A stretch of 64,000 bases of DNA from Planctomycetota bacterium (GCA_965223545.1 OZ245006.1:1216001-1280000); one strand, 5' to 3'. Counted from the first letter of the stretch, positions 2,198-60,083 are shown. The notes: generated by a model from the sequence alone, not told the origin. Program-made: numbers and translations.

Positions 2198-4828
2198 ATG
2201 ATCCGTCGCATTCACCCTCGGAGCCCGCAGGGGTCGCTGCGCCCGCATCTGGTTGCCGTTGCCGCCGCCCTCGGTGTCGGCGGTCCACTCTCGTCGCAGG
2301 AGTTGATGTCCGCGCTGCCGACGGCCCGCTTGCCGGCGAGCGGCTTCGACAGCCGCGGAATCGCGATGCGCGACGTCGACGGTGACGGGGATGTGGACGT
2401 CCTGTTCAGCACCTCGCGCCGCGGGATGCGGCTACTGCGCAACGTCGGCGCCAGCGGGCACTTTCGCGACGACTCGGCGCTCGCGTTCGCGACGGTGAGC
2501 ACGGCCGCGGGGAGCCGGCTGGCGGTGGACGATCTCGACGGCGACGGAGATGCCGATCTGCTCCGCCCGTGCTACGGCACCCAGGACGAGCTCTACCTCA
2601 ACGACGGCACCGGCACCTTTAGCGCGGCGACCGCTACCGGCCTACCCCCCGACGCCGCCTACTCGCTGGGCATCGCGCTGGGTGACGTCGACGCCGACGG
2701 CGACCTCGACGTCGCCCTCGCCAGCGACTCGGTGATCGGCTCGACGGCGGCGGTCCGGCTGTACTTGAACAGCGGCAACGCCTCGTTCACCGACGTCTCG
2801 CAGGCCCGCCTGCCGGCGCAGCGCGGCGTGGGCCGCGACGTCCGGTTCCTCGACGCCGAGGGGGACGGCGATCTCGACCTGGTCACCGCCGACCCACTCC
2901 AGCTGTGGATCAACGACGGTAGCGGCAGCTTCATGGAGAAGGCGGCTGCGCTGCCCTCGGCAGGTCCGTTCGTACGACTCGCGGTGGGTGACCTGGACGG
3001 CGACGGAGACGAGGACTTGATCGCCGACGACTCGTCCATCGGCGTGGCCCTCGACAACGACGGTGCGGCGACATTCTCCGCGCGCTCGCTGCCGCCGGTG
3101 TTCGGCTACGGCGATTTTGGCGAGACCCGACTCGTGGACGCAGACGGGGACGGCGACCTCGACGTGCTGTACGCGCGCGGCAGTCAGTACACGCCGGGGT
3201 CGCGCGACCGGTTCCTGCGCAACGATGGCAATTGGCAGTTCGTCGACGTCAGCGCGACCGCGCTCCCCCCGCGTGACGGGGTCACCTACGCCGTCGCCGT
3301 CGGTGACGCCGATGGCGACGGCGATGCCGACGTCGTCGTCGGCGGCGTCGCGCGCGACGAGCTGTGGCTCAACGACGGCGCCGGGGTGTTTGCCATGGCG
3401 ACAGGCGGTCGGCTGCCGCCCCCCATGCAAGCGACTGCGCAGACCGCGACGGCCGCTGACCTCGACGGCGACGGTGACCGGGATCTGCTCGTCGCGGGGC
3501 TGTACTTGGAGCCGCAGCTCTGGCTCGGCGATGGCACCGGCCAGTGGAGCGGCGATCCCGCGGCGCGCCTGCCGAGCCTGCGGCAGGTTTTGACGCGGCA
3601 GGCGCGCTCCTTCGACGCCAACGGCGATGGCGCACCGGAGCTGGTTCTGGCCGCCTCTGGCCAGAACCAGCTCTTGCTGAACGACGGCACCGGGCGCTTC
3701 AGCCGCGTCACCAGCATCGCCATGCCGCTCGACAACGATGATTCGTACGACATCGTGCCCGTCGACGTCGACGCGGATGGCGACCTCGATCTGGTGGTCG
3801 CCAACCGCGACCAGAACCGCCTCTACCTGAACTCCGGCGCGGGCTCGTTCACCGACGCCACGGCCGGCCGCCTGCCGGTCAGCTCCGCCACGACCGCCGC
3901 CGTTGCCACCGGGGATGTCGACGCCGACGGCGACGTCGACTTGCTGCTGGCGCACCGCGGCACGGCCAACCAGCTGCTGCTCAACGACGGCCAGGGCTCG
4001 TTCTCCCCAGCGCCGACCTTCCCTGGGTCGAGGCCGAGCGCGGGGGCGTGGTTGGCGGACGTGGATGGCGACGGCGATCTCGACGCGCTGGTGCGCGACA
4101 CGAACGCGATGCGTGTGCTGATCAATGATGGTCTCGGTGGCTTCACCGACGCCACCACGGGCCGGTTTCCCCCACCACCGGCACAGACCACCGTCAGCGC
4201 GGCGGCACCGGCCGACATCGATTCGGACGGCGACATCGACGTCTTGGTCGGCCACCGGCTGACCTCGCCGGGAGCGGTCGACCTCGTGCGGCTCTATCTC
4301 AACGACGGCGGCGGGACCTTCGTCGACGTGACCGGCACGCGATCTCCATCGAATGTCCTCGGCCATGTCAGCGGGGTCCCGATCTTCCCACTCGACATCG
4401 TGCTCGAGGACTTCGACTCCGACCGGGATCCCGACGCGTTGTTGCTGACGTCGACCGCGCCCGTGGTGCTGTTCAACTTGACGCGGCACCTGGACGCGGT
4501 GTGCTGCGCGACGACGGCGGGCGCACTGCGCCTCGACCTGTACGCCCGCTGTTGCCCAGGCACCTCGAGCCTGGGCGCAGTGGCGATCTCCGCCGGCATC
4601 GCCAGGACCACAGTGCCCGGCATCGGCGAACTTCTGCTGCAGCCAGCGTCGATCATCGGCCTGCCCGTGATCCCTATTCCCGGTGCGACTGGACTTGCGC
4701 AAGGGACATTGGCGATCCCGAACGTGCCAAGCCTGGTGGGTGGTGCGTTCGCTAGCCAGGCAATCGTCGTCGGACCGGGCGCGGCGCTGGGATTCACCAA
4801 CGCGCGCTTCGACGTCGTTGTCCGATGA
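2198..4828 (+). CDS. Secreted FG-GAP/VCBS repeat (integrin-like beta-propeller) protein with a C-terminal beta-rich domain
   Basis: About 14 DxDGDGDxD...LxLNDGxGxF repeats and a signal-like N-terminus LVAVAAALGVGGPLSS|Q. Start placed at ATG 2198 within ORF 2036-4828. Confidence 0.9.
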   Translation: MIRRIHPRSPQGSLRPHLVAVAAALGVGGPLSSQELMSALPTARLPASGFDSRGIAMRDVDGDGDVDVLFSTSRRGMRLLRNVGASGHFRDDSALAFATVSTAAGSRLAVDDLDGDGDADLLRPCYGTQDELYLNDGTGTFSAATATGLPPDAAYSLGIALGDVDADGDLDVALASDSVIGSTAAVRLYLNSGNASFTDVSQARLPAQRGVGRDVRFLDAEGDGDLDLVTADPLQLWINDGSGSFMEKAAALPSAGPFVRLAVGDLDGDGDEDLIADDSSIGVALDNDGAATFSARSLPPVFGYGDFGETRLVDADGDGDLDVLYARGSQYTPGSRDRFLRNDGNWQFVDVSATALPPRDGVTYAVAVGDADGDGDADVVVGGVARDELWLNDGAGVFAMATGGRLPPPMQATAQTATAADLDGDGDRDLLVAGLYLEPQLWLGDGTGQWSGDPAARLPSLRQVLTRQARSFDANGDGAPELVLAASGQNQLLLNDGTGRFSRVTSIAMPLDNDDSYDIVPVDVDADGDLDLVVANRDQNRLYLNSGAGSFTDATAGRLPVSSATTAAVATGDVDADGDVDLLLAHRGTANQLLLNDGQGSFSPAPTFPGSRPSAGAWLADVDGDGDLDALVRDTNAMRVLINDGLGGFTDATTGRFPPPPAQTTVSAAAPADIDSDGDIDVLVGHRLTSPGAVDLVRLYLNDGGGTFVDVTGTRSPSNVLGHVSGVPIFPLDIVLEDFDSDRDPDALLLTSTAPVVLFNLTRHLDAVCCATTAGALRLDLYARCCPGTSSLGAVAISAGIARTTVPGIGELLLQPASIIGLPVIPIPGATGLAQGTLAIPNVPSLVGGAFASQAIVVGPGAALGFTNARFDVVVR

Positions 4829-4879
4829 TCCGCGTGGGCATGCCCACAGAAAAGCCAGTGCAGCAACGGTGGGCCGTGG

Positions 4880-6100: not shown

Positions 6101-6140
6101 GGTGATTTTCGGGCCGGCCAGAGGCCACGCCCAGCGGGAT

Positions 6141-6167
6141 GTTGCCGCGACATCACGATCGGACTCG
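6141..6167 (-). promoter_or_regulatory. Putative ECF promoter, copy A (upstream of the PDZ aspartyl protease)
   Basis: Minus strand cGAGTCCGatcgtgatgtcGCGGCAAC; matches the copies at 6212-6238 and 10505-10531 with identical spacing. Confidence 0.65.
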
Positions 6168-6211
6168 ATCCTCTGCCGATCCCGGTCGGGTCAGCCCGTA
6201 CCGGCTGCGGA

Positions 6212-6238
6212 TGAGACCCTTTCCGACCGCGCGGCAAC
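6212..6238 (+). promoter_or_regulatory. Putative ECF promoter, copy B (upstream of the thioredoxin/TPR/TolB protein)
   Basis: tGAGACCCtttccgaccgcGCGGCAAC; 18/27 identical and ungapped against the copy upstream of the sigma gene. Confidence 0.65.
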
Positions 6239-6265: not shown

Positions 6266-8221
6266 ATGATCGGAATCGCCAAGATCCCCCCGCTGTCGTG
6301 CGCAGCCATTGCTTTCCTCGCCGCCCCCCCGTCGATACCGACCGAGATCGACTGGTACCACGGCAGCTTCGACAGTGCCGTGACCCGGGCGCAAGACGAA
6401 GACAAGGACCTCCTGCTCTACTTCTGGTCGGAGCGCAGCGACGCATGCGCCGGCTTCTACCAGGGTCCGCTGCAGGATGCGCGCGTGGCCGCCGCGACGC
6501 GGCCGTTCTTGTGCGTGGGCGTGCAGCTCGAGCCCGAGTCCGGAAAGGCGCTCTTCAACCGATACGCGATCACCACGACGCCGGCTCTTCTGCTGGTCGA
6601 CCCCGCCGACCAGCGCGCGCAAGGTGGAGTCTTCGGCTCCGCCAACGTGCCGACCGTTGTCCGCGAGCTACGGCGCATGGCGGACGACGAGGGAACGCTG
6701 CGCGCCCTCGAACGCGCCACGGCAGCAGACCCCGGCGACCTCGACGTGCGCAGCCGCCTCGCCGACTGCGTCGCCGCCTTGGGTCAAGCCGAGAAGGCAC
6801 GTCATCTGCGGGAGAGCATCACGGCCGACGACCCTGATGGGTCGAGCGACGCGGCCGCATCGATGCTTCTCGAGCAACACATGCGGCGGACGTTCGGTTC
6901 ACTGGCGGAGCTGAGCGCGGATCCGATCCGCGACTTGGTCGAGCACGTCCAGGCGATCAAGCCCCCGGCGACGCGGCAGCGGGGCTGGGACCACGTCGCT
7001 CGCCTGCGCAATGCGATCGGCGACCGGGTCGGAGAGATGGCCGCGTGGCGGCAGGCTTTCCCCTTGGTGCGTGATGGCCGCCTGTTCAACTGGGGTTGGA
7101 ACCAGTGCCTGTGGTGGTGGTCCAACCGCGACGTCCTCACCAAGAAGGACAAGGCGTTCGCCCTCGAAGTCGCGCGCAAGACGGCCGAAGTCTCCGAGCG
7201 ACTCAGCGCCGAAGATCCGGAGTACTACGACCCCCGCCTGTTTCTCACGCGACGCCTCAACGTCCTCGCCATGACCCAGCACATGAATGGGCATCCAGGC
7301 GAGGCGATGCGCGTCATGGAGCGCTGCGTTCGACTCGCACCGGACAACGACGAATATTCTGCCCGGCTCGCGGCGTATCGAGCAGGCGCCGCCGACGAGT
7401 GCTTTCAACCGTACTCCGACTACGATCCCGCGTGGTCACCCGATGGCCGCAAGATCCTGTTCACCTCGACGCGCGACTACAACGCGGAGCTCTACGTCGC
7501 CGACGTGAAGACCGGGGCACAGCGGCGGATCACCCGGTCGTTGGCCGCGGACGACCAGGGAGTCTTCAGACCAACCGGCCGATTCCTGGCATTTCGCTCC
7601 GATCGCTTCCTGACGACTGGCATCTACCGCGCCAAGCTCGACGGCTCTGGCTGCAGCTTGTTGGTATCACTGCGCACCGCCGATGGACAAGTCGTGCCAG
7701 CCGGCATGCCGTCCTACTCGCGAGACGGTCGGCAGCTGGCGATGATCGCGATGTTCGACGGCAGATCTCGAGCAGCGCTCGCCAACGCGGCCGGAGGCTT
7801 GGCAACGCCGATTCTCGGTGCCACGCAAGCCGTCGCCACGGTCACGTGGGCCGACTCACGCTTGCTCTATTCCGCGTCACAGAACCAGCAACAAGATCTC
7901 TTCATCGCCGATGCCTCCGGGGCCGCAGCCCACAACCTTACCCCCGCAGACGATGAGTCCTGGGACGCGGAGGCCTCCGCCGACCGCCGCGGAAAGCGCG
8001 TCGTGTTCGCCCGCTGGCGCGACGGCGACTACGACCTCTGGAGCGTGCTGGTGGACGGATCGCAACTGACCCAGATCACCAGCGGCCCGGCCCGTGACCG
8101 TCGCCCCGCGCTGTCGCCCGACGGCAAGCACGTCGCGTTTGATCGGACCGACGCCTCGGGCAACAGCAGGATCTGGGTGATGCGCGTGGATGGCACCGAG
8201 TCCCGCCCCCTGCTCGATTGA
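6266..8221 (+). CDS. Thioredoxin-like (SxxC) domain, TPR-like helical region and TolB/PD40 beta-propeller
   Basis: IDWYHGSFDSAVTRAQDEDKDLLLYFWSERSDAC...YAITTTPALLLVD (thioredoxin fold); DPAWSPDGRKILFTSTRD, PSYSRDG and RPALSPDGKHVAF (PD40 repeats). Confidence 0.82.
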   Translation: MIGIAKIPPLSCAAIAFLAAPPSIPTEIDWYHGSFDSAVTRAQDEDKDLLLYFWSERSDACAGFYQGPLQDARVAAATRPFLCVGVQLEPESGKALFNRYAITTTPALLLVDPADQRAQGGVFGSANVPTVVRELRRMADDEGTLRALERATAADPGDLDVRSRLADCVAALGQAEKARHLRESITADDPDGSSDAAASMLLEQHMRRTFGSLAELSADPIRDLVEHVQAIKPPATRQRGWDHVARLRNAIGDRVGEMAAWRQAFPLVRDGRLFNWGWNQCLWWWSNRDVLTKKDKAFALEVARKTAEVSERLSAEDPEYYDPRLFLTRRLNVLAMTQHMNGHPGEAMRVMERCVRLAPDNDEYSARLAAYRAGAADECFQPYSDYDPAWSPDGRKILFTSTRDYNAELYVADVKTGAQRRITRSLAADDQGVFRPTGRFLAFRSDRFLTTGIYRAKLDGSGCSLLVSLRTADGQVVPAGMPSYSRDGRQLAMIAMFDGRSRAALANAAGGLATPILGATQAVATVTWADSRLLYSASQNQQQDLFIADASGAAAHNLTPADDESWDAEASADRRGKRVVFARWRDGDYDLWSVLVDGSQLTQITSGPARDRRPALSPDGKHVAFDRTDASGNSRIWVMRVDGTESRPLLD

Positions 8222-8262: not shown

Positions 8263-10494
8263 TCACCGCGACTGCTCGAGGCCACCGGCGAGGCGAACAC
8301 AATGCAGCGCGCCGAGTCCCAGGGCGATCTCCCGCTTCGCCACCAACGCCCCTTCGCGATACACGACCACTCGGCGCGCCCGCGCACTGACTCTCACGGT
8401 TTCCGAACGGCCGGCGTGCAAGCGGCCTCGCGTCGAAACTTCCCACTGCAAGCCTCGGAAATGGTGCAACGGCAACGGGCACCCATCCTCGGCGAGGATC
8501 GCGAAGCACTCCCCTCCGCGGGGCGCCACCAACTCGATCCGCAGGCGGACCGCGCGCTGCACGACGACGGTCAACGCTCGATCGGCAGAGAGGTCCCGGC
8601 GCAGCGGCAGCACGCCAACGCCGCGGACCTCGAGCACCGGCTGCACACGCGGAACGTCGCGCAACCTGAACGACCCGTCCCGACCGGTCGTGATGCTCGT
8701 GCGCCAACGCGTCGACGCCGCATCGCCGAAGGAAGCAGAGATGTCCGTCCCAACGCGCACTTCAGCCGCAGCGACCGCCCGACCCAGGTCGTCGACCACT
8801 CGCCCGTGCATTTCGCCCAGAACCTCGGTCGGGTCGAGGACCACGGTGAGCACATCTCCGCTGGTCCGCGGCAGCGGCACATTCACCCTCGTCAACGACT
8901 TCGGTTCGATCACCGCGAGCTCACCGGTCGCTGGCGCGAGCTCGCAGATCTCGAACCACCCCCCTGCGGCTGTGATCGCGTCGGCGGACTGCCGAGCGCC
9001 ATCGCGGCGACTCGCAGCACCGACACCCCACACCTCGACTCCCGCCAACCCGCGTCCATCGGGGTCGCAGACCCGACCACGAACTGTTCGTGCCGCGGGG
9101 GGTTTTGGCCCGGGCTCGCCGGCCGCACTCCCCACCAGTGTCACCGGCAGCCGAGGACCGATGGCCTCGACCGCGAACGCCCGCTCGATGAAGCCGGCCT
9201 TCCGAACGCGCACTACCGCACCGGGCACAACCGGAAGCGTCAGCCCGAAACAGCCATCTGCGTCGGCGTCGACGGCTGTGCCCACGGTGCTGGCGGCGTC
9301 CAGTGCGACGGCCAGCCGAGCGCGGAAGTCCGCAGGCAACACGACACGGCATCGGGCGCCGGCAACCGGTTGCCCGCTCGTGTCGAGCACGCGCCCGACG
9401 ACGGCGCGCGGGCGCGCAACCACGACGTTGACTTCACAGGGCCCTTGCGCGGCCGTCTCCCCCGCCAGCACGGTGACCCAAGACTCGGACACAACATCGA
9501 TGCGACCGCCCGGCCAGTATCGGTGAAAGGAGAACCGCCCGTGGGCATCGCTGATGCTCACCAGTTCGCCGTTGGCCCGCGCGGGGGCGTGGGGTCGAAG
9601 CCGTACCACAGCAGCTGCGACCGGCAGGCCGGTGTCTGCCAGCACTCGACCGCGCAGCACGACACCCGGCTCGAGAGTGGCCGCGGAGTTGATGGCGGTG
9701 GGCACGGCGACGGCGGAGGCCTGCGCCCGCGGCTCGAGGGGCGCGGTCGCCGCGCGCGGAGTGGCGCCAGCCCGGTCTTTGCCGGCGGACAGCGCCGCGA
9801 TCGAAACCGCACTCGTCGGCAGCGGGGGCAACGGTCCCGTCCCGCAGCTCCGCCACGCACCGGCCGGCAGCGCGAGGACGAGACCGGCGGCCAGCGCCCA
9901 GCGCGCAAACGCCATCCTACGCCCCATGGGTCGACCGACACACAGCGCGACGAGGGCGGGAAACCAACCGCGACCGTCGTCCCTGGTCCGGCGTCGCAGC
10001 TGTTCGCGAATCGCCGCCTGCGCGCGCGCCAACCTGGTCTTCACCGTCGATACCGGCACACCGAGACGGGCGGCGATCTCCGCAGGCTTGCAGTCGTCGT
10101 AGAACCGCAGCAGAACGACATCTCGGTAGTGGGGAGCGAGCCCATCCACCACGTCGGCCAGCAGCGCCTGGGTCTCCTTGTGCTCGATCGTGTCGAGCGC
10201 GGAAGGCAGACCCTCGGGTTGCGCGCAGGCGCGCTCCCGCCGCTGACGGCGGCAGCGCCGGCGCTGCTCCAGCGCCGCCAGGTTCTTCACCACCCGAGCG
10301 AAGAAGCGGCGCGGCGCACGCGGCGGTCCACCGCCTGCCAAGGCCGCGAGCATCGATTCCTGCACGAGATCGTCGGCTTCGTGGCCATCGCTCACCAACT
10401 TGCGAGCCAGCGAGCGGGCCCAGGTGGCGTCACGCACCCACTCGCTCGAGGGCGGTGTCGCATCGCGGTCACGATCCGATGGACAGTCCATCAC
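8263..10494 (-). CDS. ECF sigma factor fused to a TM segment and carboxypeptidase-regulatory-like repeats
   Basis: ADDLVQESMLAAL (sigma2); LAPHYRDVVLLRFYDDCKPAEIAARLGVPVSTVKTRLARA (sigma4); hydrophobic WALAAGLVLALPAGAW; repeats GRVLADTGLPVAAA, GRVLDTSGQPVAGA, GRVCDPDGRGLAGV and GRVVDDLGRAVAAA. Confidence 0.9.
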   Translation of the reverse strand: MMDCPSDRDRDATPPSSEWVRDATWARSLARKLVSDGHEADDLVQESMLAALAGGGPPRAPRRFFARVVKNLAALEQRRRCRRQRRERACAQPEGLPSALDTIEHKETQALLADVVDGLAPHYRDVVLLRFYDDCKPAEIAARLGVPVSTVKTRLARAQAAIREQLRRRTRDDGRGWFPALVALCVGRPMGRRMAFARWALAAGLVLALPAGAWRSCGTGPLPPLPTSAVSIAALSAGKDRAGATPRAATAPLEPRAQASAVAVPTAINSAATLEPGVVLRGRVLADTGLPVAAAVVRLRPHAPARANGELVSISDAHGRFSFHRYWPGGRIDVVSESWVTVLAGETAAQGPCEVNVVVARPRAVVGRVLDTSGQPVAGARCRVVLPADFRARLAVALDAASTVGTAVDADADGCFGLTLPVVPGAVVRVRKAGFIERAFAVEAIGPRLPVTLVGSAAGEPGPKPPAARTVRGRVCDPDGRGLAGVEVWGVGAASRRDGARQSADAITAAGGWFEICELAPATGELAVIEPKSLTRVNVPLPRTSGDVLTVVLDPTEVLGEMHGRVVDDLGRAVAAAEVRVGTDISASFGDAASTRWRTSITTGRDGSFRLRDVPRVQPVLEVRGVGVLPLRRDLSADRALTVVVQRAVRLRIELVAPRGGECFAILAEDGCPLPLHHFRGLQWEVSTRGRLHAGRSETVRVSARARRVVVYREGALVAKREIALGLGALHCVRLAGGLEQSR

Positions 10495-10504
10495 ATCCCA
10501 CGAA

Positions 10505-10531: not shown

Positions 10532-10641
10532 CCGAACTCGAGCTTGTGACTCCGGCTGCGTCCCCAGGGCCGAGGAATCCCCTGCGTTGCGGGCCCGGTC
10601 CACGGCGCACTCTCCGAGACGCTATCCTTCGCTGCGCTTTC

Positions 10642-11781
10642 ATGAGAACCCTCCGCATGCTAATCCATCGCACTCGCTTGCCGACCATTGCCGCGGTCTG
10701 CGCCGCCGCGACACCACTGGTGGCGCAGCGCGACTCCACCGCGATCGAGTGGGAATCGTCGCTCGCATCGGCCCTGCGCGCGGCCGCCAAAGACTCCCGC
10801 AAGATTGCGATCTACTTCTGGATCGGCGACAGCGACTACTGCCGGCGCATGTGGGAAGAGACCCTTGGTCGTGACCGGGCGGTGGCCGAGCTGTCACAGT
10901 TCGTCTGCCTCAGCACGCGCGCCGATCAGGAGCACGCCGCGGCTTTGATGCAGCGTTTCGCCGTGACCAAGCTGCCCACGATGCTCTTTGCTGCTTCGGA
11001 TGGGCAAGCGGAGGATGCGATTCGCGGCTTCATCGACCTCGATGCCTTCGTCGCCGAATGTCGTCGCATTCGAACCGGCGACAAGACCGTCAGCGACTGG
11101 CGCCGCCGGTGCCACGCTGCCCCCGATGACCTCGATGCGCGGCTGCAGCTCGCGCTACAGCTGCGGCACGTCGGCGAGCGCGACGAAAGCGCACACCTCA
11201 TCGCATCGATCAAGCGCGCCGACCCCAAGGGCGCTTCCGTGGCGGGCGCCCAACTGCGACTCTACGACGTGTTCGACGAAGTGCGCGCCAGCGCGGCGGA
11301 CGCCAGCGACCCCAGCACCTATGACTTGACCCCGCTGTACGCGCACCTACCGGTGGTGCGACCTCGCGCGGTCCTGCACGAAGCCTGGCGGTGGATTGCC
11401 GATGTCGAGCACCAGCGTGGCGATCGCCCACACGAGCGAACGGCACTGGCGGAGACCTGGCGGCATGCGACCGAGGGCAAGCCACGCGCCGACGCGAGCG
11501 CCACGCTTCTGCAGCGCTACACGGACATGGGCGACGAGCTCAACGAGGCCGAACGCGCACTCGCGTTGGAGGTCGCCCATTGGTTGCGCGATGCAGCCCG
11601 CGCCCACCCCGAGGCTCCCGCGAACTACGTGCACCACGCGCACGCGATGGCGCTGTTCCTCAACCACCGGCTCGACCAAGCCATCGACCAGCTGCAAAAC
11701 GCGATCGAGCTCGCGCCCGATGAGGCCGACCACCGGCAACTCCTCGAACGCGTGCGCCAAGCGCAACGCGCTCGTCGTTGA
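10642..11781 (+). CDS. Secreted thioredoxin-like (SxxC) + TPR protein; paralog of the N-terminal part of 6266-8221
   Basis: IEWESSLASALRAAAKDSRKIAIYFWIGDSDYCRRMW...FAVTKLPTMLF and a C-terminal TPR (QAIDQLQNAIELAPD). Start (ATG 10642 or 10657) is uncertain. Confidence 0.82.
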   Translation: MRTLRMLIHRTRLPTIAAVCAAATPLVAQRDSTAIEWESSLASALRAAAKDSRKIAIYFWIGDSDYCRRMWEETLGRDRAVAELSQFVCLSTRADQEHAAALMQRFAVTKLPTMLFAASDGQAEDAIRGFIDLDAFVAECRRIRTGDKTVSDWRRRCHAAPDDLDARLQLALQLRHVGERDESAHLIASIKRADPKGASVAGAQLRLYDVFDEVRASAADASDPSTYDLTPLYAHLPVVRPRAVLHEAWRWIADVEHQRGDRPHERTALAETWRHATEGKPRADASATLLQRYTDMGDELNEAERALALEVAHWLRDAARAHPEAPANYVHHAHAMALFLNHRLDQAIDQLQNAIELAPDEADHRQLLERVRQAQRARR

Positions 11782-11898: not shown

Positions 11899-12645
11899 AT
11901 GAAGTACTCCCTCCTGCCCGCGATCGCGCTGTGTGTGACCCCAGCGACCGCCCAACTCCAGTCGGTCGTCGGCCCGGTCATCGCGCCGCTCGGGTGCTCC
12001 GTCCGGATCTCGTTTTCCAACGACACCGCACAGAGCTGGAGCCACGGCGTCTGCCCGTACGTCGTGCGCGACGCCGCTGGCCAGCAGATCGCGCCGGGCG
12101 CCTGCACGTTGCAGCTGGCGATCACCGCACCCGGTGGCACGTTCTCGACGAGCTGGCCACAGATCGATGCGCAGGGCAACCAGGTGTTGCCCGGCTCGTA
12201 CGTGGTCGAAGTGATGCTGCCCGATGGCACCAGCCACCAGCATCCAATCACGATCTCGCCGTCGACGACCCCCGCGGTCGCCCCGATCGGCGTGGCGCGC
12301 ACCGGCACGACGCGCAACTACGGGTTGTGCGCACCGTCCCAACCCAACGGCGCCTACCTCATGCTGGCGTCGCTGACCGCGAACCAGGGTTTCGCCACCT
12401 GCAGCGGTCGGTTTCCGCTGGACGCGGACCCCCTTCTGTTCCACTCGGCCACCGGCCAGGCGCCGTTCGTCGGTTTCGCCGGTCCGCTCGACGCCCGCGG
12501 CGAGACCACGGCGCCCGCGCTCGCGCTGCCGCAACTGCCAGCGCTGGTCGGCCTGCCACTGCACTTCGCCTTTGCCGCGGTCGATCCGAGCCAACCGTGC
12601 CCGGTGGCGGCGATCTCCACCGCGCAGCGCATCGTCATCGGTTGA
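11899..12645 (+). CDS. Small secreted protein with an Ig/FlgD-like domain and the shared C-terminal domain
   Basis: Signal peptide MKYSLLPAIALCVTPATA|Q. WPQIDAQGNQVLPGSYVVEV resembles the FlgD-Ig motif. The C-terminus resembles those of the sulfatase and the M14 peptidase. Confidence 0.8.
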   Translation: MKYSLLPAIALCVTPATAQLQSVVGPVIAPLGCSVRISFSNDTAQSWSHGVCPYVVRDAAGQQIAPGACTLQLAITAPGGTFSTSWPQIDAQGNQVLPGSYVVEVMLPDGTSHQHPITISPSTTPAVAPIGVARTGTTRNYGLCAPSQPNGAYLMLASLTANQGFATCSGRFPLDADPLLFHSATGQAPFVGFAGPLDARGETTAPALALPQLPALVGLPLHFAFAAVDPSQPCPVAAISTAQRIVIG

Positions 12646-16138: not shown

Positions 16139-18982
16139 CTATTCGACGACGAACACCTGTACGCTGCGCGGTGGCATGAAGCCCGGCGCCGCGGCGTCGT
16201 GGTGCTGCAGCTTGATGTCGGTGGTGCCCAGGCCCCAGCCGAAGGTGCTGTCCCCGTTGCCCTGACCGACGAGGTACTCCACCACGCCCGCGCCCGCGGG
16301 GCGCAGCCCCTTGACGACGAAGTCTTGGTCGATGCCGTCATAGTGGGCCGGGTCGAACGACCCGGTCCACGCCGAGGGGAAGTCGGACCAGTTGACGAAG
16401 ACGATGCCGACCCGATCTTCACCCGGAGTGCGCCAAACGCCGTGCATCACGGTCGCCACCGGGTACTGCTGGATGGTCAGGGAGTCCTCGTTGAAGTGCA
16501 GCACGCCCGGCGTCGCCGGCGAGGTCAGCGTCGCCACCGCGGTCGACGGGTTGGGCACCGAAGTCACCACCAGTGGCGGGTAGCCCAGCGGGCCACGCGG
16601 CGGCAGCCGCAGCGGCCGCTCGGCAATGCCACCGCACAGGTACTGGCCGGCCTCGTCGGTGCACGACGTGGCGGCATGCACCCGCTGCAGGAACGCGATC
16701 ACGTCATTCTGCTGCGGCACGCTCGGATCCCGCGCCTCGACCACGCCGTTGCGATTCACGAACAAGGTGAAGTCCTTGTAGTCGTAGAAGAACGGGTACA
16801 CCTGCGGCTTCATGCCCTGCACCAACCGCAGTGCCGTGACCATGCGTGTGTAGTCGGCCCACTGCTGCCAGGTGAGGCCCAAGCCCGGCGGCTGGCCGCC
16901 ACCGAGATCGGCGCGCACGCCGGTCGTGTGCAGCATCACACCGATCGCGTCGGCGCGCGAGTACTCGTGATACACCGGGTTCCACAGCGGCGGGTTGGGG
17001 TTGGCGGTCTCCACCGGGGTGGGGAACGGATTGCCCGCGATCAGATCCAGGACGGTCATCTGCTGCGTCTGCAGCGGCACCGGCTTGATGCCGTGCTGGC
17101 CGAAGTCGTAGTGGCCGGCGTAGAACTCCTGGGCGGCCTCGGTGAGCACGAACGGGATCTCGGGGTGCTGCGCCCCGGTCTTGTCCCGGCCCACTCGCGC
17201 ACGGATTACGTCGAACGCGCGGTTGCCGCCCTCGACGAAGGCGGTGCCGCCGTGGTGGCGGAAGTTGAACGGCAAGGGCCCGTTGGGCGACGGGTAGCGC
17301 AAGAAGCTGCCCTGGCCGCCGAGCGTATCGAGGAACACGCCGCCGAGCTGCGGGGTGGTGTTCATGATGTCGTCGTAGAGCTCGGTACCCATCCACCCCG
17401 GCACTGCGACGGTGTGGCCGAAGTCGACGATCATGCCGCCGGTCGGCAGCGGTGGCGGCTGGGTGCCGTCGCGCAGATAGACGAACCAGTCGGGATCGAA
17501 GCTGGGCCAATCGGCGTCGTTGACGTACAGCGGCAAGGTGTACATCGACATGTTGATGCCGGCGGCGTGGGCGCGCGCGATCTCGTTGCGCGCCTCGGTC
17601 GTCGGCTCCTGGAACGCACCCGCTGCCGCGGTGAACGGCCGTGGATTGTAGCCGGGCCCGATCGGGTCCTCGACGCCATCGCCCTTCAGCCATTTCTGCC
17701 ACTCCATGAACACCGGCGTCGCCGAGCCGTCCGGCTCGCGAAAGACCTGTTGGAAGTCCAGCGCCGTGTCCGTGAAGGTCTGGAACATGGCCGGCAGGTC
17801 GGCGTTGACCTTGTTGAAGACTGAGGTCGCCACCATGACCGAGCTGCGCGGGTAGTCGGGATTGAGCGCGTAGGCCGGATCGGCGACCCCGACCAATCCC
17901 ATCTCGCTGCGCACGAACTCGCGATAGTGGCTGGTGACGTCGTACCAGAACGTGTCGTCAGCCGCTTCGAGCGCGCACAGCACGGCGGGATATCCGCTCT
18001 GGAAGTAGTTGAGCCAGGGTGAGGGCCCGTACTCGGGGAAGTACACCGGCGCCCACCGGTAGTACTCCAGCCCCAGCGGATCGGGCACGCAGTCGTGTTG
18101 GAAGCGCTTGTAGTAGCCCTCGTGGTCCTCGGTCGAGAAGTAGAGGATCTTGCGGAATGCGGTGAACAGCTCGTTGCCGAGCGGAATCGATGTCGGGTCG
18201 CCACCGTACAACGCGCTGAACTGCATCTGCTGCCCGCGCGCCGGGTGCTCCACATCGGCGGACAAGCCGAACAGCCGCCAGAGCGACATCGGCAAGTTGG
18301 TCGCCGGCAGCACGAAGTTGGTCGACAGCGGGATCAGAATTCGTGCCTGCGCGGCGCTGCCAGGCTGGCGTGCGTAGACGATCGGTGCGTGCACCTCATC
18401 CACGGTGTGCTGCTCGGTGCCGCCCGGAATCTGCAGCCGGATCACGCGGCTGTTCCACTCGGCGCGGTTGGGCGACGTCGCGGGGATCTTGACCTCCAGC
18501 TCGACCAACAACACCGACGCCGGGCTCTGGCACGGAATCGCGCAACCCATCCAGCTGAAGATCGCGTGCGTCGGCGCCGATCGCGAGTCGACCCAGGTCT
18601 CGAAGTTGAGCGCGCTGTCGGGCAGCACTTCGGTCGGCGTCTGACTGGTGAGTGGCCGGGTGACGACTTTCCACAGACCGCGCGGCTGGCCCAGCGGCGG
18701 TGTTGCGGCGTAGGCGAAGCGCGTCACCGTGCCGTCCGCCCGCGTGCCGCGGTGGCCGATCTCGGTGAGCACGGCGCCGACTGAGGCATCCCGGGTGAAC
18801 GTCAACGCGATGCGCCGGTCGCCGCTATCGACCGAGCCGACCTGCAGCTGGTCGCCCGGGTTCCAGCGCAGGCGCGACATGCGCAGCTTGGAGAAGGGGG
18901 CACCTTGACCAAATGCCGCAGTGGGGAGCAGACTGACACTGACTGTCACCAGTGCCGCCAGGAGAGCTGTGGTGCGAAGCAT
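16139..18982 (-). CDS. Large secreted protein, possibly glycoside-hydrolase-like (DUF6259-like)
   Basis: Signal peptide ending AFG|Q. Motifs MQFSALY...LYFSTED...KRF, WYDVTSHYREFV, GGVFLDTLGG and LTEA. The family assignment is tentative. Confidence 0.6.
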   Translation of the reverse strand: MLRTTALLAALVTVSVSLLPTAAFGQGAPFSKLRMSRLRWNPGDQLQVGSVDSGDRRIALTFTRDASVGAVLTEIGHRGTRADGTVTRFAYAATPPLGQPRGLWKVVTRPLTSQTPTEVLPDSALNFETWVDSRSAPTHAIFSWMGCAIPCQSPASVLLVELEVKIPATSPNRAEWNSRVIRLQIPGGTEQHTVDEVHAPIVYARQPGSAAQARILIPLSTNFVLPATNLPMSLWRLFGLSADVEHPARGQQMQFSALYGGDPTSIPLGNELFTAFRKILYFSTEDHEGYYKRFQHDCVPDPLGLEYYRWAPVYFPEYGPSPWLNYFQSGYPAVLCALEAADDTFWYDVTSHYREFVRSEMGLVGVADPAYALNPDYPRSSVMVATSVFNKVNADLPAMFQTFTDTALDFQQVFREPDGSATPVFMEWQKWLKGDGVEDPIGPGYNPRPFTAAAGAFQEPTTEARNEIARAHAAGINMSMYTLPLYVNDADWPSFDPDWFVYLRDGTQPPPLPTGGMIVDFGHTVAVPGWMGTELYDDIMNTTPQLGGVFLDTLGGQGSFLRYPSPNGPLPFNFRHHGGTAFVEGGNRAFDVIRARVGRDKTGAQHPEIPFVLTEAAQEFYAGHYDFGQHGIKPVPLQTQQMTVLDLIAGNPFPTPVETANPNPPLWNPVYHEYSRADAIGVMLHTTGVRADLGGGQPPGLGLTWQQWADYTRMVTALRLVQGMKPQVYPFFYDYKDFTLFVNRNGVVEARDPSVPQQNDVIAFLQRVHAATSCTDEAGQYLCGGIAERPLRLPPRGPLGYPPLVVTSVPNPSTAVATLTSPATPGVLHFNEDSLTIQQYPVATVMHGVWRTPGEDRVGIVFVNWSDFPSAWTGSFDPAHYDGIDQDFVVKGLRPAGAGVVEYLVGQGNGDSTFGWGLGTTDIKLQHHDAAAPGFMPPRSVQVFVVE

Positions 18983-46657: not shown

Positions 46658-47746
46658 TCACATGTCGAACTCGACCACCAAGCCCGAGTTCTTCCTCACG
46701 GTTCCGGTCGGCCCCTGCGAGCCCGCGACGTAGACCGTACCGATCGGCGAAGCGGGATGTGGCGCGACGATGTGGTGCCGGGCACCGTCACTGAACACCA
46801 AGCCAAAGCTATTGGCGGTCGCATCGGGTGCCACGACCTGACTGAGGATGGTCAGCCCGCTGAAGTTCGGCGTCACGTTCATGCCGATCGAGAAGGTGAA
46901 GTTTCCAGCCGCGTCGGTGAACGTCGGAATCGTCAGCAGATAGTCGGTCAGCACGGTACACGCGCCAGATGGTGCGCTCTGCGTCCCCGGCAGAACGAAC
47001 GGCAAGGGCAACGGACCGAACGCGGTTTGGCTCGTACCGAGAGCAATCGAGACGAGCGAGCTCTTCGGCAGCCGGAAGCCGTTCAGCCGCAAGCTGATCG
47101 CGTTGCCCGCCCAGTTGCCCGATGCACTCGGTTGGATCTCCACCGGCAACGTCGATCCCGTCGTGATGCAGCCGGTGCCATAGCGAGCGAACGCCGGGGC
47201 CGGGTTGGGGTTGGCGCCCCCGGTGTTGTCGAACCAGATCGCGGATGGCTGAGTACGAGAGTGGACGACGATCTCGACACACAGCGGTCCCCCACCGCCG
47301 AAGGCGAATGGGGTCGAGAACGGCAACCGGTAGTCGAAGGGCTCGGCGAATCCAGTGGGCACGGTCTGTGGGAAGCTGACCAACGCGAACCGCGCCGCGG
47401 CCGCTCGGTCGGAGCCATGGTTGGCCGCCAGCGTCGCCGACGGGTTGCTCGCCGTCGTCTGCGCCGTCGACAGGAAGACACTGACCAACATCGAAGACGC
47501 GGGCAGCGTGGTGTTCGCCGCGACTGCGTCGCGGCGAAACGCGACCCCCTTGATGACACCGGCGCGACCCGCCATCTCGTCGTACACCGCAAGGTGGACC
47601 GCCGGAGTCGCCGTACCGCCGATCGCGAAGGTTTCGAAGAACGGTCCCTCGGTCGTCGCGAAGCTGGAGGGACTGACAAACGGCTGTGCGGCCGCTGGGA
47701 CGCAGAGGACGAGCCCGGCGAGGGCGAAGAACGGAGGATGCTGCAT
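46658..47746 (-). CDS. Secreted hypothetical protein with a variant of the shared C-terminal domain
   Basis: Signal peptide ALAGLVLCVPAAA|Q; YGTGC; TDAAGN...PNFSGLTILSQ...ANSFGLVFSDG. Confidence 0.78.
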   Translation of the reverse strand: MQHPPFFALAGLVLCVPAAAQPFVSPSSFATTEGPFFETFAIGGTATPAVHLAVYDEMAGRAGVIKGVAFRRDAVAANTTLPASSMLVSVFLSTAQTTASNPSATLAANHGSDRAAAARFALVSFPQTVPTGFAEPFDYRLPFSTPFAFGGGGPLCVEIVVHSRTQPSAIWFDNTGGANPNPAPAFARYGTGCITTGSTLPVEIQPSASGNWAGNAISLRLNGFRLPKSSLVSIALGTSQTAFGPLPLPFVLPGTQSAPSGACTVLTDYLLTIPTFTDAAGNFTFSIGMNVTPNFSGLTILSQVVAPDATANSFGLVFSDGARHHIVAPHPASPIGTVYVAGSQGPTGTVRKNSGLVVEFDM

Positions 47747-47895: not shown

Positions 47896-48951
47896 CTATT
47901 CCTCCAGCCGCACCGCGTGTTCGCCCGCGGCGACGACTTCACCGATCGATGCCGCGGTCGCGCCCGCCTCGCGCAACCGGCGAAGGGCAACCTCTTCCTC
48001 CGCCGCGGGCAAGGTCACCAGCAGTCCGCCGGAGGTCTCGGCGTCATGGCAAAGGCGCACCAGGTCGACATCGACCCCAGCCCCCGCCACGGCCACACCA
48101 GCCAAGGTCGCCTGGCCGCGCTTTGCCGCGCCGGTGATGACCCCGTCCCGCACCAAGTCGAGCGCACCGCTGAACACGGGCAAGCGCGACGCCGCGAGCC
48201 GCAGCGTCACGCCGGCGCCCCGCGCCATCTCCGCGCCGTGCCCCATCAGCCCGAAACCGGTGACATCGGTGCAGCCGGAGACGTTCGACTCGGCCAGCGC
48301 CTCCGCCGCGGCCTTGTTGAGGGTCGCCATCTGCTGCATGGCACTCTCCTGCATCTCGTCGCTCGCGCGACCACGCTTGATCGCCGCCGACACCGGCCCC
48401 ATGCCCAAGGGCTTGGTCAGCAGCACGACGTCGCCGACCCGCGCCCCACTGTTGCGCCAGAACCGGTCGGGATGAACCAGACCGGTCACCGACAGGCCGA
48501 ACTTGATCTCGGAGTCGACCACCGAGTGTCCCCCGCACAGCGCGGCGCCCGCCTCCCGCACCTTCTCCAACCCGCCGGCGAGAATCTCGCCGAGCACCGA
48601 TACGTCGACTTCCTTCGGCCAACAAACCAGGTTGAGCGCGGTGAGCGCGCGTCCCCCCATCGCGTAGACGTCGGACAGCGCGTTGGCCGCCGCGATGCGG
48701 CCGAACCACCGCGGGTCGTCGACGACGGGCGGGAAGAAGTCGACGGTCTGCACCAGCGCGCGCTCGGCATCGAGCCGGAACACACCGGCGTCCTCCAGCC
48801 CCTCGGTGCCGGCCAGCAGGTCGGGGTGGTTCAGCGGACCCAGAGAATCGAGAACCTGCCCGAGGCTCCCGGAAGGCAGCTTGGCCGCTCAACCACCGCC
48901 CGAGGCGAACTCGGTCAAGCGATGCGAACGCTGCGGCTGGCAATCGGACAT
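47896..48951 (-). CDS. selD: Selenide, water dikinase (selenophosphate synthetase), selenocysteine-containing
   Basis: MSDCQPQRSHRLTEFASGGG-TGA(48891-48889)-AAKL...EDAGVFRL...QTVDFFPPVVDDP..FGRIAAANALSDVYAMGG...DVTGFGL..H...DAETSGGLL, all in one frame. The ORF track splits it at the TGA. Confidence 0.95.
48853..48888 (-). promoter_or_regulatory. Candidate SECIS hairpin immediately 3' of the selD UGA
   Basis: UGA-gcggccaag-CUGCCU-uccgggagccuc-GGGCAG; the stem begins about 10 nt after the UGA and has a G-containing loop. Confidence 0.5.
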
Positions 48952-48979
48952 GTCAGACAAACTCCAGTCGGGAGAAACC

Positions 48980-50368
48980 TCAGCGCAACCGTTGCCGCAC
49001 CAGACCTGCGACCGTGTCCAGGGACTCGAGCTCCAGGCTGCGCAGATCGAGGAGCACTTGGCCGCGCTCGACGCGGGCGAAGATCGGCGGGCCATCGACC
49101 GGCGCACGCAGCGCGTCGGCCGCTGCGGCCCCACCGTCGACCGCCACCGCGAAGGAGGGCAACGGTCGCGCCGGGTTGGCGCCGCTGCCAGCGAACGACT
49201 CGGTCGGCACCACGGTGGCGCCCAGCGGCGCGAGTGCCCCGGCAAGCGTTTTGGCGCGGCTCTCGAGGTGGTCCGGCGACACCGTCAGCATGCGCAGAGT
49301 GGGAATCTCTCGCAGCGGATCACCGTCGCGGTAGATCGCCAGCGTCGCTTCCAGAGCGGCCAGGGTGAGCTTGTCGCACCGAAACGCCCGGTACAGCGGA
49401 TGCGCGCGCACACGCGCGACCAGCGCGCGATCGCCGACGATCAACCCACACTGGGGTCCGCCCATCAGCTTGTCGCCGGAGAAACAACAGAGGTGCACGC
49501 CACTGGCGACCACGTCGGCGACGCGCGGCTCACCCACGCCCGGCACCGGCTCGCGCGCCAGCAAGCCGGAACCCAGATCGTCGATCACGCACAGACCGCG
49601 CTCTCGGCCGAGCACGGCGATCTCCTCGCGCGCCGGGAACGCGGTGAAGCCCAAGACGAGGAAGTTGCTCGGATGCACCAAGAGGAGCGCCGCCGTGCGC
49701 TCGCCGATCGCGCCGGCGAAGTCGCGCAGATGCGTGCGGTTGGTGGTCCCCACCTCGACCATCTGACAGCCCGCCTGCGCCATGACGTCGGGCATCCGGA
49801 AACCACCGCCGATCTCCACCAGCTGCCCGCGCGACACCACGACCTCGCTGCCCGCCGCAATCGCCGCCAGCACCAACGTCGTCGCCGCCGCGTTGTTGTT
49901 GACCACCAACGCACCCGTGGCCCCGGTCAGGTCACACAGCATGGCCGCCACCGCCTCCTCGCGCTCGTTGCGCTGACCGGTGCGCGGATCGAGCTCGACC
50001 ACCGCGTAGCCACCCGCATCCTGGGCCGCGCGCCGTGCGGCGTCGGCCAGCGGGGCGCGGCCGATGCCGGTGTGCAGCACCACGCCAGTGGCGTTGATCA
50101 CGGCCCGGTGCCGCGCCGCCAGGGCCTGGCGACCGCGGCGCTGCAGCTCGTCAGAAACTGCGGCATCGCCGAAACACCGCTGCACGGCGGCGGCGTCCAG
50201 CCGGCTGGCCCGCACCGCCTCGCGCACCTCGTCGAGGTACTCGCGCGCGACGCGCACCGCGACCGATCGCGGCAGCTCCGCCAGAGCCACGCGCCGCAGC
50301 AGCGCATCCAGCGACGGAATCCGGCGCAGCGCATCGGCGGCCTGCGAGCTCGGATGCGAAGTGGTCAT
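48980..50368 (-). CDS. selA: L-seryl-tRNA(Sec) selenium transferase
   Basis: VINATGVVLHT.IGRAPL, VVNNNAAA, SRGQLVEIGGGFRMPDVM, EVGTTNRTH, DDLGSG, FSGDKLMGGPQCG. Confidence 0.96.
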   Translation of the reverse strand: MTTSHPSSQAADALRRIPSLDALLRRVALAELPRSVAVRVAREYLDEVREAVRASRLDAAAVQRCFGDAAVSDELQRRGRQALAARHRAVINATGVVLHTGIGRAPLADAARRAAQDAGGYAVVELDPRTGQRNEREEAVAAMLCDLTGATGALVVNNNAAATTLVLAAIAAGSEVVVSRGQLVEIGGGFRMPDVMAQAGCQMVEVGTTNRTHLRDFAGAIGERTAALLLVHPSNFLVLGFTAFPAREEIAVLGRERGLCVIDDLGSGLLAREPVPGVGEPRVADVVASGVHLCCFSGDKLMGGPQCGLIVGDRALVARVRAHPLYRAFRCDKLTLAALEATLAIYRDGDPLREIPTLRMLTVSPDHLESRAKTLAGALAPLGATVVPTESFAGSGANPARPLPSFAVAVDGGAAAADALRAPVDGPPIFARVERGQVLLDLRSLELESLDTVAGLVRQRLR

Positions 50369-57509: not shown

Positions 57510-57569
57510 CGCTCAACTCCTGGGTCCGGCACAACGGGACTCGGCAGCAGAGCTCGATACCATAGGTGC

Positions 57570-60083
57570 ATGCGCGCTCTCCTCCCAGTTGCCCTCACCC
57601 TCCTCCTGGCCCATCCCGGGTACGGGCAAGACTCGCAGCGCACGATGCTGGTCCGCGTCACCACCGGGACGTTCGCCGAGGAGGCCGCGGTCCGGCGCGC
57701 GCTCCCCGACCTCGACATCGTGCGTCGCACTTCCCCACTCTCGCTCGAGGCGCTGGTCCACCAGCAAGAGCTGGAGGAGCTGCGCTCGGCGGGGTTCTCG
57801 GTCGAGGTCGTGCACCGAGACCTGGCACAGTTCTATGCCCAGCGCCTGCAGCCGGTGGAGTTCGATGCCTCGCCGACCGCCCGCACCGGCTTGCCGCTCG
57901 GCAGCATGGGCGGCTACCTGACCTACGACGAGATCAACGCGCTGCTCGACACGTGGCGCCAGCAGTACCCCAACCTGATCACCGCGCGCCAATCGATCGG
58001 CAAGTCGGTCGAGGGCCGCGATCAGTGGATCGTCAAAGTGTCGGCGAACGCCGACGCCGACGAGGCGGAGCCGGAGATCTTCTGGGAGACGTTGATCCAC
58101 GCCCGCGAGCCCGGCGGAATGATGTCGGCGATGCGCACCGTCGAGTATCTGCTGTCCAACTACGGCACCGACCCCGAAGTCACCGACCTGCTCGACAACC
58201 GCGAGCTCTGGTACCTGCCGGTGATGAACGTCGACGGCTACGAGTACAACCGGCAGACCAACCCCGGTGGCGGCGGGCTGTGGCGCAAGAACCGGCAGCT
58301 GGTCGCCGCCAACACCTACGGCGTCGACCTCAACCGCAACTTCGGCTACCAGTGGGGCTACGACAACCGCGGCAGCTCGGGAACGCCGACCAGCGAGACC
58401 TACCGCGGTCCCTCTGCATTCAGCGAGCCCGAGGCCCGCAACGTGCGTGACTTCATCACTGCGCGCACACCGCTCGGCATGACCTCGGGCTGGGATCTCC
58501 ATGCCTTCGGCCAGCTCTGCATGTGGCCGTGGGGCTACAGCGCGGCGCTGTCACCGCGGCATTTGGCCTACCAGGAGATGACCCGCGAGATGACGCGGGA
58601 GAGCCGCAGCGTCATCGGCACGATCTTCGCCGCGCTGTACGCCATCAACGGTGGCGCGGCGGACTGGTTCGAAGGCGGCCAGGGACTCTGGGGCTGGCTG
58701 CCGGAGATCGGTGAGGACTTCTGGCCGATCACCTCGCGCATCCTCGCCCTGGCCGAGGAGAACGTGCACATGCTGGTGACTTCGATCAAGTACGCCGGCC
58801 CCTACCTGGAAGAGCAGCGCACCGACTGGATCGAGGTCGGCGACGGCGACGGGGTCCTGGAGCCCGGAGAACGCGTGCAGATCGTGTCCTTCGCGCGCAA
58901 TCTCGGCGTGCAGACCGCCAACAACGTGCGCTTCGAGCTGCGCAGCCCGAACCCGTTCGCGCGCGTCGAGATCGGCAGCTCCCCGCTGGGCAACACACCG
59001 ATGCACACCGATGTCGACAACAGCCAATCGCCGCTACAGGCGCTGGTGCCGAGCTACACGGCGCCCGGCACGCGGCTGCCGCTCGAGCTGACCTACCGCT
59101 TCGACGGGCACGTGCTGCGCCACACGGTCGATCTCGTGGTCGGGCAGCGGGCGCTGCTGGTGCGCGACCCGTGCGAGACGCGCAGCTGGACCACCGGCCT
59201 ACCCGGTGACACCGCGGTCCGCGGCCAGTGGACCTGGGGTGACCCCAACCCGACGTTCTCGCACCCCGCCGTCCGCTACGCAGTCCAATCTGGCAACGAC
59301 CACACCCCCGACGGCGGCGTCAACTGCTACATCACCGGCAATCAGCAGACGACGCTCGCATCCGCCGACGACGTCGACGGCGGGCACACCACGCTGCTGT
59401 CGCCGGTGTTCGACCTGTCGACAGCGCGCAATCCGTACATCCAGCTGTGGTATTGGTTCGTCGACCACGGCCGCGTACCGCAAGACGACGTCTTGGAGAT
59501 CGCGGTCACCAGCGATGGGCAGAGCTGGGTGCCGGTTCTGCAGGAGACCCGCTCCCGTCCCGAGTGGCAGCGGCTGTTCTTCCGCCTGCGCGATTACGTG
59601 ACGCCGAGCGCCACCGTGCAGCTCCGCGTGATCGCAGCGGATGCGCCGGACAACAGCGACTGCGAGGCGGCGATCGACGATCTGCGCATCACGGACTACG
59701 ACGACGGTGTCCGGCTGACCGCGGGCGGCCCGGCGCGCATCGGGCAGACCGTCGCGCTCCAGCTGCAGGCAACTCGATCGGCCAACCAGCCATACGCAAC
59801 CGCAGTCGCCCTCGGCACGAGCCCGGGCATCGCGCTGCCGAGCGGACGCGTGATCCCGCTAAACCCCGACCCCCTCTTCGCCACGGTCGCCTCCGTGCCC
59901 GCCGTGTTTCAGAACTTCGTCGGCCAACTCGACGCAGCCGGCAACGCGACCGCAGGCATCGCGATCCCGGCATCACCGAGCTTGATCGGCACCACACTGT
60001 TCGCAGCGTTCGTCACCGGCAGCCCGGGCGCGCCGGAGGGGATCGCCGACATCAGTCCGGCGCTGCCACTCACGATCCAGTAG
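57570..60083 (+). CDS. Secreted M14 zinc carboxypeptidase with accessory beta domains and the shared C-terminal domain
   Basis: IHAREP, NVDGY, WRKNR, GVDLNRNF, YRGPSAFSEPE, DLHAFG, PEIG; signal peptide ending GYG|Q. Confidence 0.93.
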   Translation: MRALLPVALTLLLAHPGYGQDSQRTMLVRVTTGTFAEEAAVRRALPDLDIVRRTSPLSLEALVHQQELEELRSAGFSVEVVHRDLAQFYAQRLQPVEFDASPTARTGLPLGSMGGYLTYDEINALLDTWRQQYPNLITARQSIGKSVEGRDQWIVKVSANADADEAEPEIFWETLIHAREPGGMMSAMRTVEYLLSNYGTDPEVTDLLDNRELWYLPVMNVDGYEYNRQTNPGGGGLWRKNRQLVAANTYGVDLNRNFGYQWGYDNRGSSGTPTSETYRGPSAFSEPEARNVRDFITARTPLGMTSGWDLHAFGQLCMWPWGYSAALSPRHLAYQEMTREMTRESRSVIGTIFAALYAINGGAADWFEGGQGLWGWLPEIGEDFWPITSRILALAEENVHMLVTSIKYAGPYLEEQRTDWIEVGDGDGVLEPGERVQIVSFARNLGVQTANNVRFELRSPNPFARVEIGSSPLGNTPMHTDVDNSQSPLQALVPSYTAPGTRLPLELTYRFDGHVLRHTVDLVVGQRALLVRDPCETRSWTTGLPGDTAVRGQWTWGDPNPTFSHPAVRYAVQSGNDHTPDGGVNCYITGNQQTTLASADDVDGGHTTLLSPVFDLSTARNPYIQLWYWFVDHGRVPQDDVLEIAVTSDGQSWVPVLQETRSRPEWQRLFFRLRDYVTPSATVQLRVIAADAPDNSDCEAAIDDLRITDYDDGVRLTAGGPARIGQTVALQLQATRSANQPYATAVALGTSPGIALPSGRVIPLNPDPLFATVASVPAVFQNFVGQLDAAGNATAGIAIPASPSLIGTTLFAAFVTGSPGAPEGIADISPALPLTIQ

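Follow-up and report, generated by a model that had tools for sequence, protein, structure and literature searches.

Five exported proteins encoded in one 64,000-nucleotide stretch of a Planctomycetota chromosome (the window; G000:C1:1216001-1280000, from the 8.1-Mb, 91% complete genome G000) carry copies of a single domain family of 110-125 residues. Judged from sequence, this family is real, very large and uncatalogued, and lies outside the T9SS CTD, PEP-CTERM, dockerin and catalogued CBM families. The interpretation we prefer, at a probability of roughly 45%, is that the domain would serve as a retained, non-covalent surface anchor in one large branch of Planctomycetota, on proteins whose export via the periplasm would probably depend on a type II system. 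The five copies and their carriers lie in the window as follows.

About 2198-4828, plus strand: gene of an FG-GAP repeat protein, with signal-peptide-like start, propeller and divergent domain copy
2198-4480, plus strand: its signal-peptide-like start and FG-GAP beta-propeller passenger (PF13517, 13 stretches)
4481-4828, plus strand: its divergent, terminal domain copy (A6 profile, E 2.8e-7)
11899-12267, plus strand: signal peptide and small N-terminal domain of a 248-aa protein (weak FlgD match, E 0.07)
12268-12645, plus strand: domain copy of the 248-aa protein, Cys-free subtype (window-free profile, E 3e-20)
19206-20621, plus strand: signal peptide followed by the sulfatase passenger; the gene may start at 19131 or at 19206
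20622-21014, plus strand: terminal domain copy of the sulfatase, Cys-free subtype (E 9e-13)
46658-47746, minus strand: entire 362-aa exported protein, without Pfam or NCBIfam match
46777-47182, minus strand: its domain copy with an upstream GxGC motif (E 3e-12), followed by a C-terminal extension of ~38 aa
57570-59705, plus strand: M14 zinc carboxypeptidase passenger with its signal peptide and additional beta domains
59706-60083, plus strand: terminal domain copy of the M14 peptidase, Cys-free subtype (predicted Ig-like sandwich, pLDDT 93)

The sequence-only reading had proposed that three unrelated secreted proteins end in alignable tails and that two further proteins hold weaker variants, and the motifs it quoted were all found in frame where it had placed them. 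Pairwise phmmer comparison aligned the three main tails (small protein/M14, E 3.8e-15; sulfatase/M14, 1.9e-10; small protein/sulfatase, 1.6e-7). The two weaker variants were marginal in pairwise comparison (best E 0.004 for the FG-GAP protein and 1.5e-4 for 46658-47746) and clearly belong when scored with the A6 profile, built without the window proteins (2.8e-7 and 3e-12, respectively). The A5 profile, stripped of its window rows, likewise returned the M14 peptidase (3e-30), the small protein (3e-20) and the sulfatase (9e-13), so that window-free profiles recovered 5/5 tails and none of the other 37 among the 42 window genes. The three main tails lack Cys and represent a subtype that hhalign joins to the main subtype with a probability of 97% (E 4.8e-11). 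All five carriers have a signal-peptide-like start followed by Gln, both by our rules and by eye, in keeping with the claim of unrelated secreted proteins. The description as a C-terminal tail holds for four copies and fails for 46658-47746, where ~38 residues follow the domain.

Elsewhere in the window, a 947-aa exported protein (16139-18982), which has no domain copy and no Pfam or NCBIfam match, adjoins the sulfatase gene divergently. Two exported proteins that each combine thioredoxin-like and TPR parts (6266-8221 and 10546-11781), the first additionally with a TolB-like propeller, are encoded on either side of a gene at 8263-10494 that by eye resembles an ECF sigma factor. SelD-like and SelA-like genes were read by eye at 47896-50368, and tRNA-Sec is present in the genome.

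Across G000, 386 of the 5,671 genes called by our own codon-model caller are carriers, defined as the union of ten profiles, and the domain is single-copy in all of them (0/386 with two). It lies no more than 20 residues from the C-terminus in 346 carriers, 87% of which have a predicted signal peptide, so the expected co-occurrence was found. In 25 carriers it ends 21-55 residues from the terminus and in 15 it lies further inside, at least six of these copies standing directly behind the signal peptide, and a strictly C-terminal signal is therefore not supported. The 25 proteins of the 46658-47746 type (domain plus ~40 residues), most of 350-470 aa and without Pfam match, may have a structural role on the surface. 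Searched iteratively, 37,456 six-frame ORFs yielded a plateau of ~331 proteins, and reversed-ORF decoys gave zero hits at E<1e-3 over 11 iterations; chance or compositional artefact is ruled out by these decoys and the window-free profiles. Scanning C-termini at lower stringency brought in another 60 of 4,545 proteins, 49 of them with a signal peptide, compared with 2 reversed and 7/2,830 mid-protein controls, and ~435 domain genes is a fair estimate for G000 when divergent copies are counted. Carriers cluster on the chromosome, 142/386 adjoining another carrier against a shuffled mean of 51. In a sequence library clustered at 50% identity, a 107-row profile matched 34,178 clusters; among the best 150 matches, 147 were terminal and one had two copies, and the source annotations of library matches read hypothetical or were named after the passenger.

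The lineage restriction that had been proposed was borne out by the distribution of the domain. IF2 of G000 is 79% identical to its counterpart in a Planctomycetota MAG. Among relatives within the order, 29/30 had from 23 to 150 or more domain matches. G021, a member of the same order (2.9 Mb, 91% complete), had zero, second subtype profile included. In a phylum sample in which only 23 candidates were scored per genome, 42/201 Planctomycetota genomes matched, 40 with 7 or more matches and two with one, and the 30 families itemised were all-or-none for the domain. Atlas neighbours of the domain were mostly from Planctomycetota. G187 (2.4 Mb), which lies outside the order, has 35 carriers, and in four of these the domain is far from terminal.

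The domain is marked by the conserved positions G12, P83, L88, G90, Q96 and S/T112 and by the end pattern Q...D-P..G...[ST]N[GA]; Lys makes up 0.2% of its residues, conserved aromatics are few, and the ~400 variants in G000 share 16-43% identity. Both subtypes are predicted to fold as a seven-strand Ig-like sandwich (pLDDT 97.9 and 93.0), with an all-beta core, no terminal or transmembrane helix, and a hairpin-and-helix insertion of 25-30 aa behind the third core strand. Strands C and F of the predicted fold are hydrophobic on both faces, and in the model the insertion may bury them, in which case part of the high hydropathy described below would belong to a second core. A Cys in the insertion covaries with a Cys just upstream (both in 170, neither in 125, one only in 51; n=346), from which we infer a disulfide and hence folding in the periplasm.

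The profile search proposed by the sequence-only reading thus uncovered a proteome-wide family, and at E<=0.5 none of 107 domain copies matched Pfam or NCBIfam. PDB sequences gave no match save one cytochrome bd subunit (E 0.009), taken as chance, and the Atlas neighbour clusters had no Pfam family in common; no known family emerged from Pfam, NCBIfam, PDB sequences or the Atlas. Foldseek with the predicted domain returned nothing at E<=0.001. The best wide structural matches were 6tav (Z 9.5, rmsd 3.1 over 104 residues) and 6grq (Z 8.8, rmsd 2.6 over 91), macroglobulin and Ig-like domains that share an overall beta-sandwich topology with the predicted domain but only 10-13% identity; their scores stay within the generic Ig background, so that no function can be read from them. 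The 50 matches listed in either wide structural search contained no T9SS CTD, which does not exclude a likeness. A literature search that reached few subscription papers found no description of the domain, and the words 'secretion' and 'signal peptide' are absent from the available part of the Saltatorellota preprint (10.1101/817700).

Signal peptides and lipoboxes were called with our own rules. A signal peptide was predicted in 302/346 terminal carriers and in 1,925/5,285 other genes (36%), with Gln after the predicted cleavage site in 215/302 and 554/1,925, respectively. When 127 carriers were scanned with Pfam, FG-GAP repeats appeared in 21 and Kelch repeats in 15, many had no match, and further passengers comprised sulfatase, CotH, LamG, MauG-type dihaem, M14, M43, PAD, endonuclease I and DUF7948. 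Compared with other exported proteins, passengers are poor in K+R+E (9.4% vs 16.7%) and rich in S+T+N+G (30.5% vs 20.9%). Within aligned regions, carriers are poorer in K/R/E than their domain-free paralogues in 64/76 pairs (30/37 collapsed); the difference in cost between the same groups, calculated with assumed cost values, is weaker (23/37 collapsed). According to the available part of PMC2932507, extracellular proteins show the same direction of composition as the carriers. Together with the passenger composition, this direction leads us to infer that carriers probably end up outside the outer membrane. The composition signal says 'outside', not 'anchored'.

Retention is suggested by the domain itself. 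Median GRAVY is +0.55 over the last 110 aa of carriers, -0.07 over passengers and -0.18 over the C-termini of other exported proteins; the corresponding shares of charged residues are 8%, 17% and 24%. In 285/289 cases the domain is more hydrophobic than its own passenger. A lipobox occurs in 2/327 carriers but in 184/1,546 other exported proteins (OR 0.046). These properties, together with placement at either end, count in favour of a surface anchor, as do two families in which the domain replaces a lipid anchor. In one, a module comes after a signal peptide and the domain in 4938098/4934992, and after a lipoprotein signal in the domain-free 354937 and 357581; in the other, the same relation holds between 8009385 and the domain-free 4277167, 5777335 and 7167276. 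The lipid-swap argument comes from these two families, and lipoproteins are not over-represented among domain-free paralogues as a whole (7/74 vs a 12% background). A Kelch family with the domain at the mature N-terminus is conserved in G187.

A mechanism consistent with these properties would begin with passage of the inner membrane by Sec and cleavage by signal peptidase I, after which Gln would often be the N-terminal residue. Carriers would then fold in the periplasm, as suggested by the covarying Cys pair and the c-type haem passengers, and would cross the outer membrane folded, probably via a type II-like secretin system of G000. The domain would stay uncleaved, its hydrophobic insertion binding the outer membrane or a surface glycolipid, and would thereby do the job of the lipid anchor in surface lipoproteins; the secretion machine may also recognise it.

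To identify machinery, G000 was compared with 2.30 Mb of G187, yielding 1,032 reciprocal best hits (347 envelope-like); 171 of 216 filtered hits and extra candidates were Pfam-scanned, the remainder being already recognised or domain carriers. Of the six secretins in G000, a PilM-Q-like operon and a type II operon each contain one, two short ones are neighbours of a GspK-like gene, and the remaining two lie on either side of ExbB/ExbD-like genes. The GspD/E/F/G-J-like operon of G000 occupies C1:690-698 kb, with E, F and pilins assigned by eye, and the GspK-like gene sits at C1:1170 kb. Secretin, ATPase, platform and pseudopilins are all present, and G000 could thus offer the carriers a plausible type II route. 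The secretin/pseudopilin loci are conserved in G187. Four candidates were profiled across 80 genomes (41 positive and 36 negative for the domain, plus G021, G135 and G197). The giant GspK-like pseudopilin occurred in 40/41 positives and 15/36 negatives (57/80 genomes overall, mostly single-copy), the short secretin in 40/41 positives and about 8-10/36 negatives, the GspK-like gene in 40/41 positives and, among negatives, 1/36 strongly and 6 weakly, and a YVTN lipoprotein in 37/41 positives, with 0/36 strong and 7 weak matches in negatives. As G021 holds all four despite being domain-negative, and scores fall with distance, none of them is shown to be specific to the domain; all appear to track the clade. 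The dedicated, uncharacterised pathway suggested by the sequence-only reading was not found among these candidates. With its few FG-GAP repeats (7 matches, compared with 27-73 in three small positive genomes), G021 seems to have shed its cargo along with the domain yet to have kept the systems.

Several of these loci deserve description in their own right. A second pseudopilin operon (G000:C1:1834389-1851821, L174 and L175; L068 in G187) encodes a GspK-like protein of ~1,740 aa without Pfam match, a 904-aa TPR protein, PilM-like genes and a PPIase. At G000:C1:7076990-7090901 (L176; L058 in G187), secretins of 830-880 aa lie on either side of ExbB/ExbD-like and TPR genes, possibly forming a motor-driven secretin system; an actin-like gene adjoins this secretin pair in G000 (by eye), and a MamK-like identity is a guess from the available part of 10.1101/817700. 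At G000:C1:1170056-1174692 (L177; L124 in G187), one or more short secretins of 420-490 aa with a lipoprotein-like start lie directly upstream of the GspK-like gene, a pairing repeated in many genomes of the clade. The YVTN lipoprotein of ~1000 aa (L088:14581-17526; G000:C1:764101-767112 and 5152003-5155248), which has a RuvB-like neighbour in both genomes, is a near-perfect clade marker. Three tandem lipoproteins of 1,150-1,310 aa with YRF-like ends and paralogues elsewhere (G000:C1:377897-389478) are candidate surface scaffolds.

One carrier is a membrane protein: an 11-helix arabinofuranosyltransferase-like GT-C enzyme that ends in the domain (L027:3953-5968; G000:C1:2680994-2683012). The fusion is common to the 7 closest of 120 homologues, and in homologues of other bacteria unrelated accessory modules fill the slot. 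This copy cannot serve its own carrier as an export tag, and by placing the domain on an inner-membrane protein it also counts against the surface anchor. The GT-C copies have about twice the charge of typical copies, which suggests that they have been repurposed.

It is possible, if less probable than anchoring, that the domain is mainly an export signal like the T9SS CTD, read by a clade-specific outer-membrane translocon (modified type II or other) and then maybe removed. The 346/386 terminal copies (90%, single-copy) and the 147 of the best 150 library matches are what an export signal would lead one to expect and weigh against an anchor, and the exclusion of lipoproteins fits either. The passengers resemble T9SS cargo (FG-GAP 21 and Kelch 15 of 127; CotH, LamG, M14, M43, PAD, DUF7948), the predicted seven-strand Ig-like fold resembles the RgpB CTD as given in the available part of PMC4804311, and both the all-or-none distribution and the scarcity of FG-GAP matches in domain-free G021 point the same way. 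Such a signal is harder to reconcile with the N-terminal and internal copies, the 25 copies with a ~40-aa extension and the membrane-enzyme fusion; nor was a C25 peptidase found in G000, G011 or G023, and the four machinery candidates are all in G021, two of them in many other negatives. For the proposed 'export or surface attachment', surface attachment thus fits better than an export signal, and the two readings can both hold.

Docking onto a protein scaffold in dockerin-cohesin style, for instance onto large Ig/YVTN surface lipoproteins or an S-layer, appears unlikely. One copy per protein, at either end, would suit it, and the YVTN-propeller lipoprotein (E<=5e-15 in 37/41 positives and none below 4e-10 in the 36 negatives) belongs to a family with the same 'outside' composition, but it is present in domain-negative G021 too. 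Moreover, ~400 variants would face a handful of candidate scaffolds, no large repeated cognate-module family stood out among exported non-carriers, and the calcium-binding Asp/Asn repeat of dockerins is absent from the domain. Still more doubtful is an accessory module that binds the envelope from the periplasmic side, or carbohydrates in general, and whose carriers stay periplasmic. The GT-C fusion, in a slot elsewhere filled by unrelated accessory domains, and the frequency of Ig-like folds among CBMs lend it some appeal, while Pfam gives no CBM match, the domain is almost never repeated (0/386; 1 of the best 150 library matches), conserved aromatics are few, and composition is of the extracellular type relative to the carriers' own paralogues.

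Of the original sorting or anchoring idea, what stands is a lineage-restricted, uncatalogued module that probably determines where its exported carriers are located; a strictly C-terminal T9SS- or PEP-CTERM-like signal, as first proposed, is not supported. If the surface anchor is the right reading, a folded, non-covalent outer-membrane anchor would be a new mode of display in Gram-negative bacteria and possibly a portable display tag. In a clade that is widespread and poorly studied, the domain profile would identify the sulfatases, peptidases, propeller adhesins and redox enzymes of the probable surface proteome, using a domain for which the Pfam and NCBIfam copies searched hold no model. 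A bolder version, which we advance only as speculation, is that in a large branch of Planctomycetota 7-8% of the proteome would be surface-displayed by a new route. A hydrophobic Ig-like domain would both be recognised by a divergent machine of type II-like kind (short secretin, GspK and giant pseudopilin) and act as a sortase-free, lipid-free outer-membrane anchor interchangeable with a lipoprotein anchor, and the whole would be a functional counterpart of T9SS of independent origin.

Among known systems, the T9SS type A CTD (TIGR04183; RgpB/PorZ) is one Ig-like sandwich at the end of many unrelated Sec/signal peptidase I proteins, an arrangement that the domain is predicted to resemble, and T9SS cargo includes passengers of similar kinds. 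None of the 107 domain copies matches the T9SS type A CTD models (TIGR04183 and the Pfam equivalent), and the domain is longer (110-125 aa), with its 25-30-aa insertion, almost no Lys, and N-terminal and internal copies too. The available parts of PMC4804311 and PMC5445135 describe, respectively, a seven-strand Ig-like fold for the RgpB CTD and, for type A CTDs, PxGxYVV and KxxxK motifs in the last 22 residues; the domain lacks these end motifs. No SprA_N, PorP, GldM, PorU-type or C25 match was found in G000, where the control searches for SprA, PorP and GldM matched nowhere and absence is thus not proven. PorV reached 24 bits against a cut-off of 90, the match being a lone ~370-aa barrel, and a crude barrel-strand heuristic gave no SprA-sized candidate in G000. 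C25 (gingipain-family) peptidases were found in G187 and G039, the former having an 896-aa C25 peptidase (L121:1718-4405) without the domain.

PEP-CTERM/exosortase and GlyGly-CTERM/rhombosortase are also many-to-one, lineage-patchy C-terminal modules on exported proteins. Their signals consist of a short motif, a transmembrane helix and a basic cluster, whereas ours is predicted to be a folded beta domain lacking any helix anchor, and G000 gave no match to PF07589 (PEP-CTERM). Dockerin, SLH and other non-covalent docking modules are position-independent and kept on the mature protein; the domain differs from dockerin and SLH in fold, has no Pfam match and no known partner. Type II-secreted surface lipoproteins such as PulA are also folded proteins carried from periplasm to surface and retained there. 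PulA-type retention depends on an N-terminal lipid, whereas in the carriers, which almost never have a lipobox, a folded hydrophobic domain would take its place.
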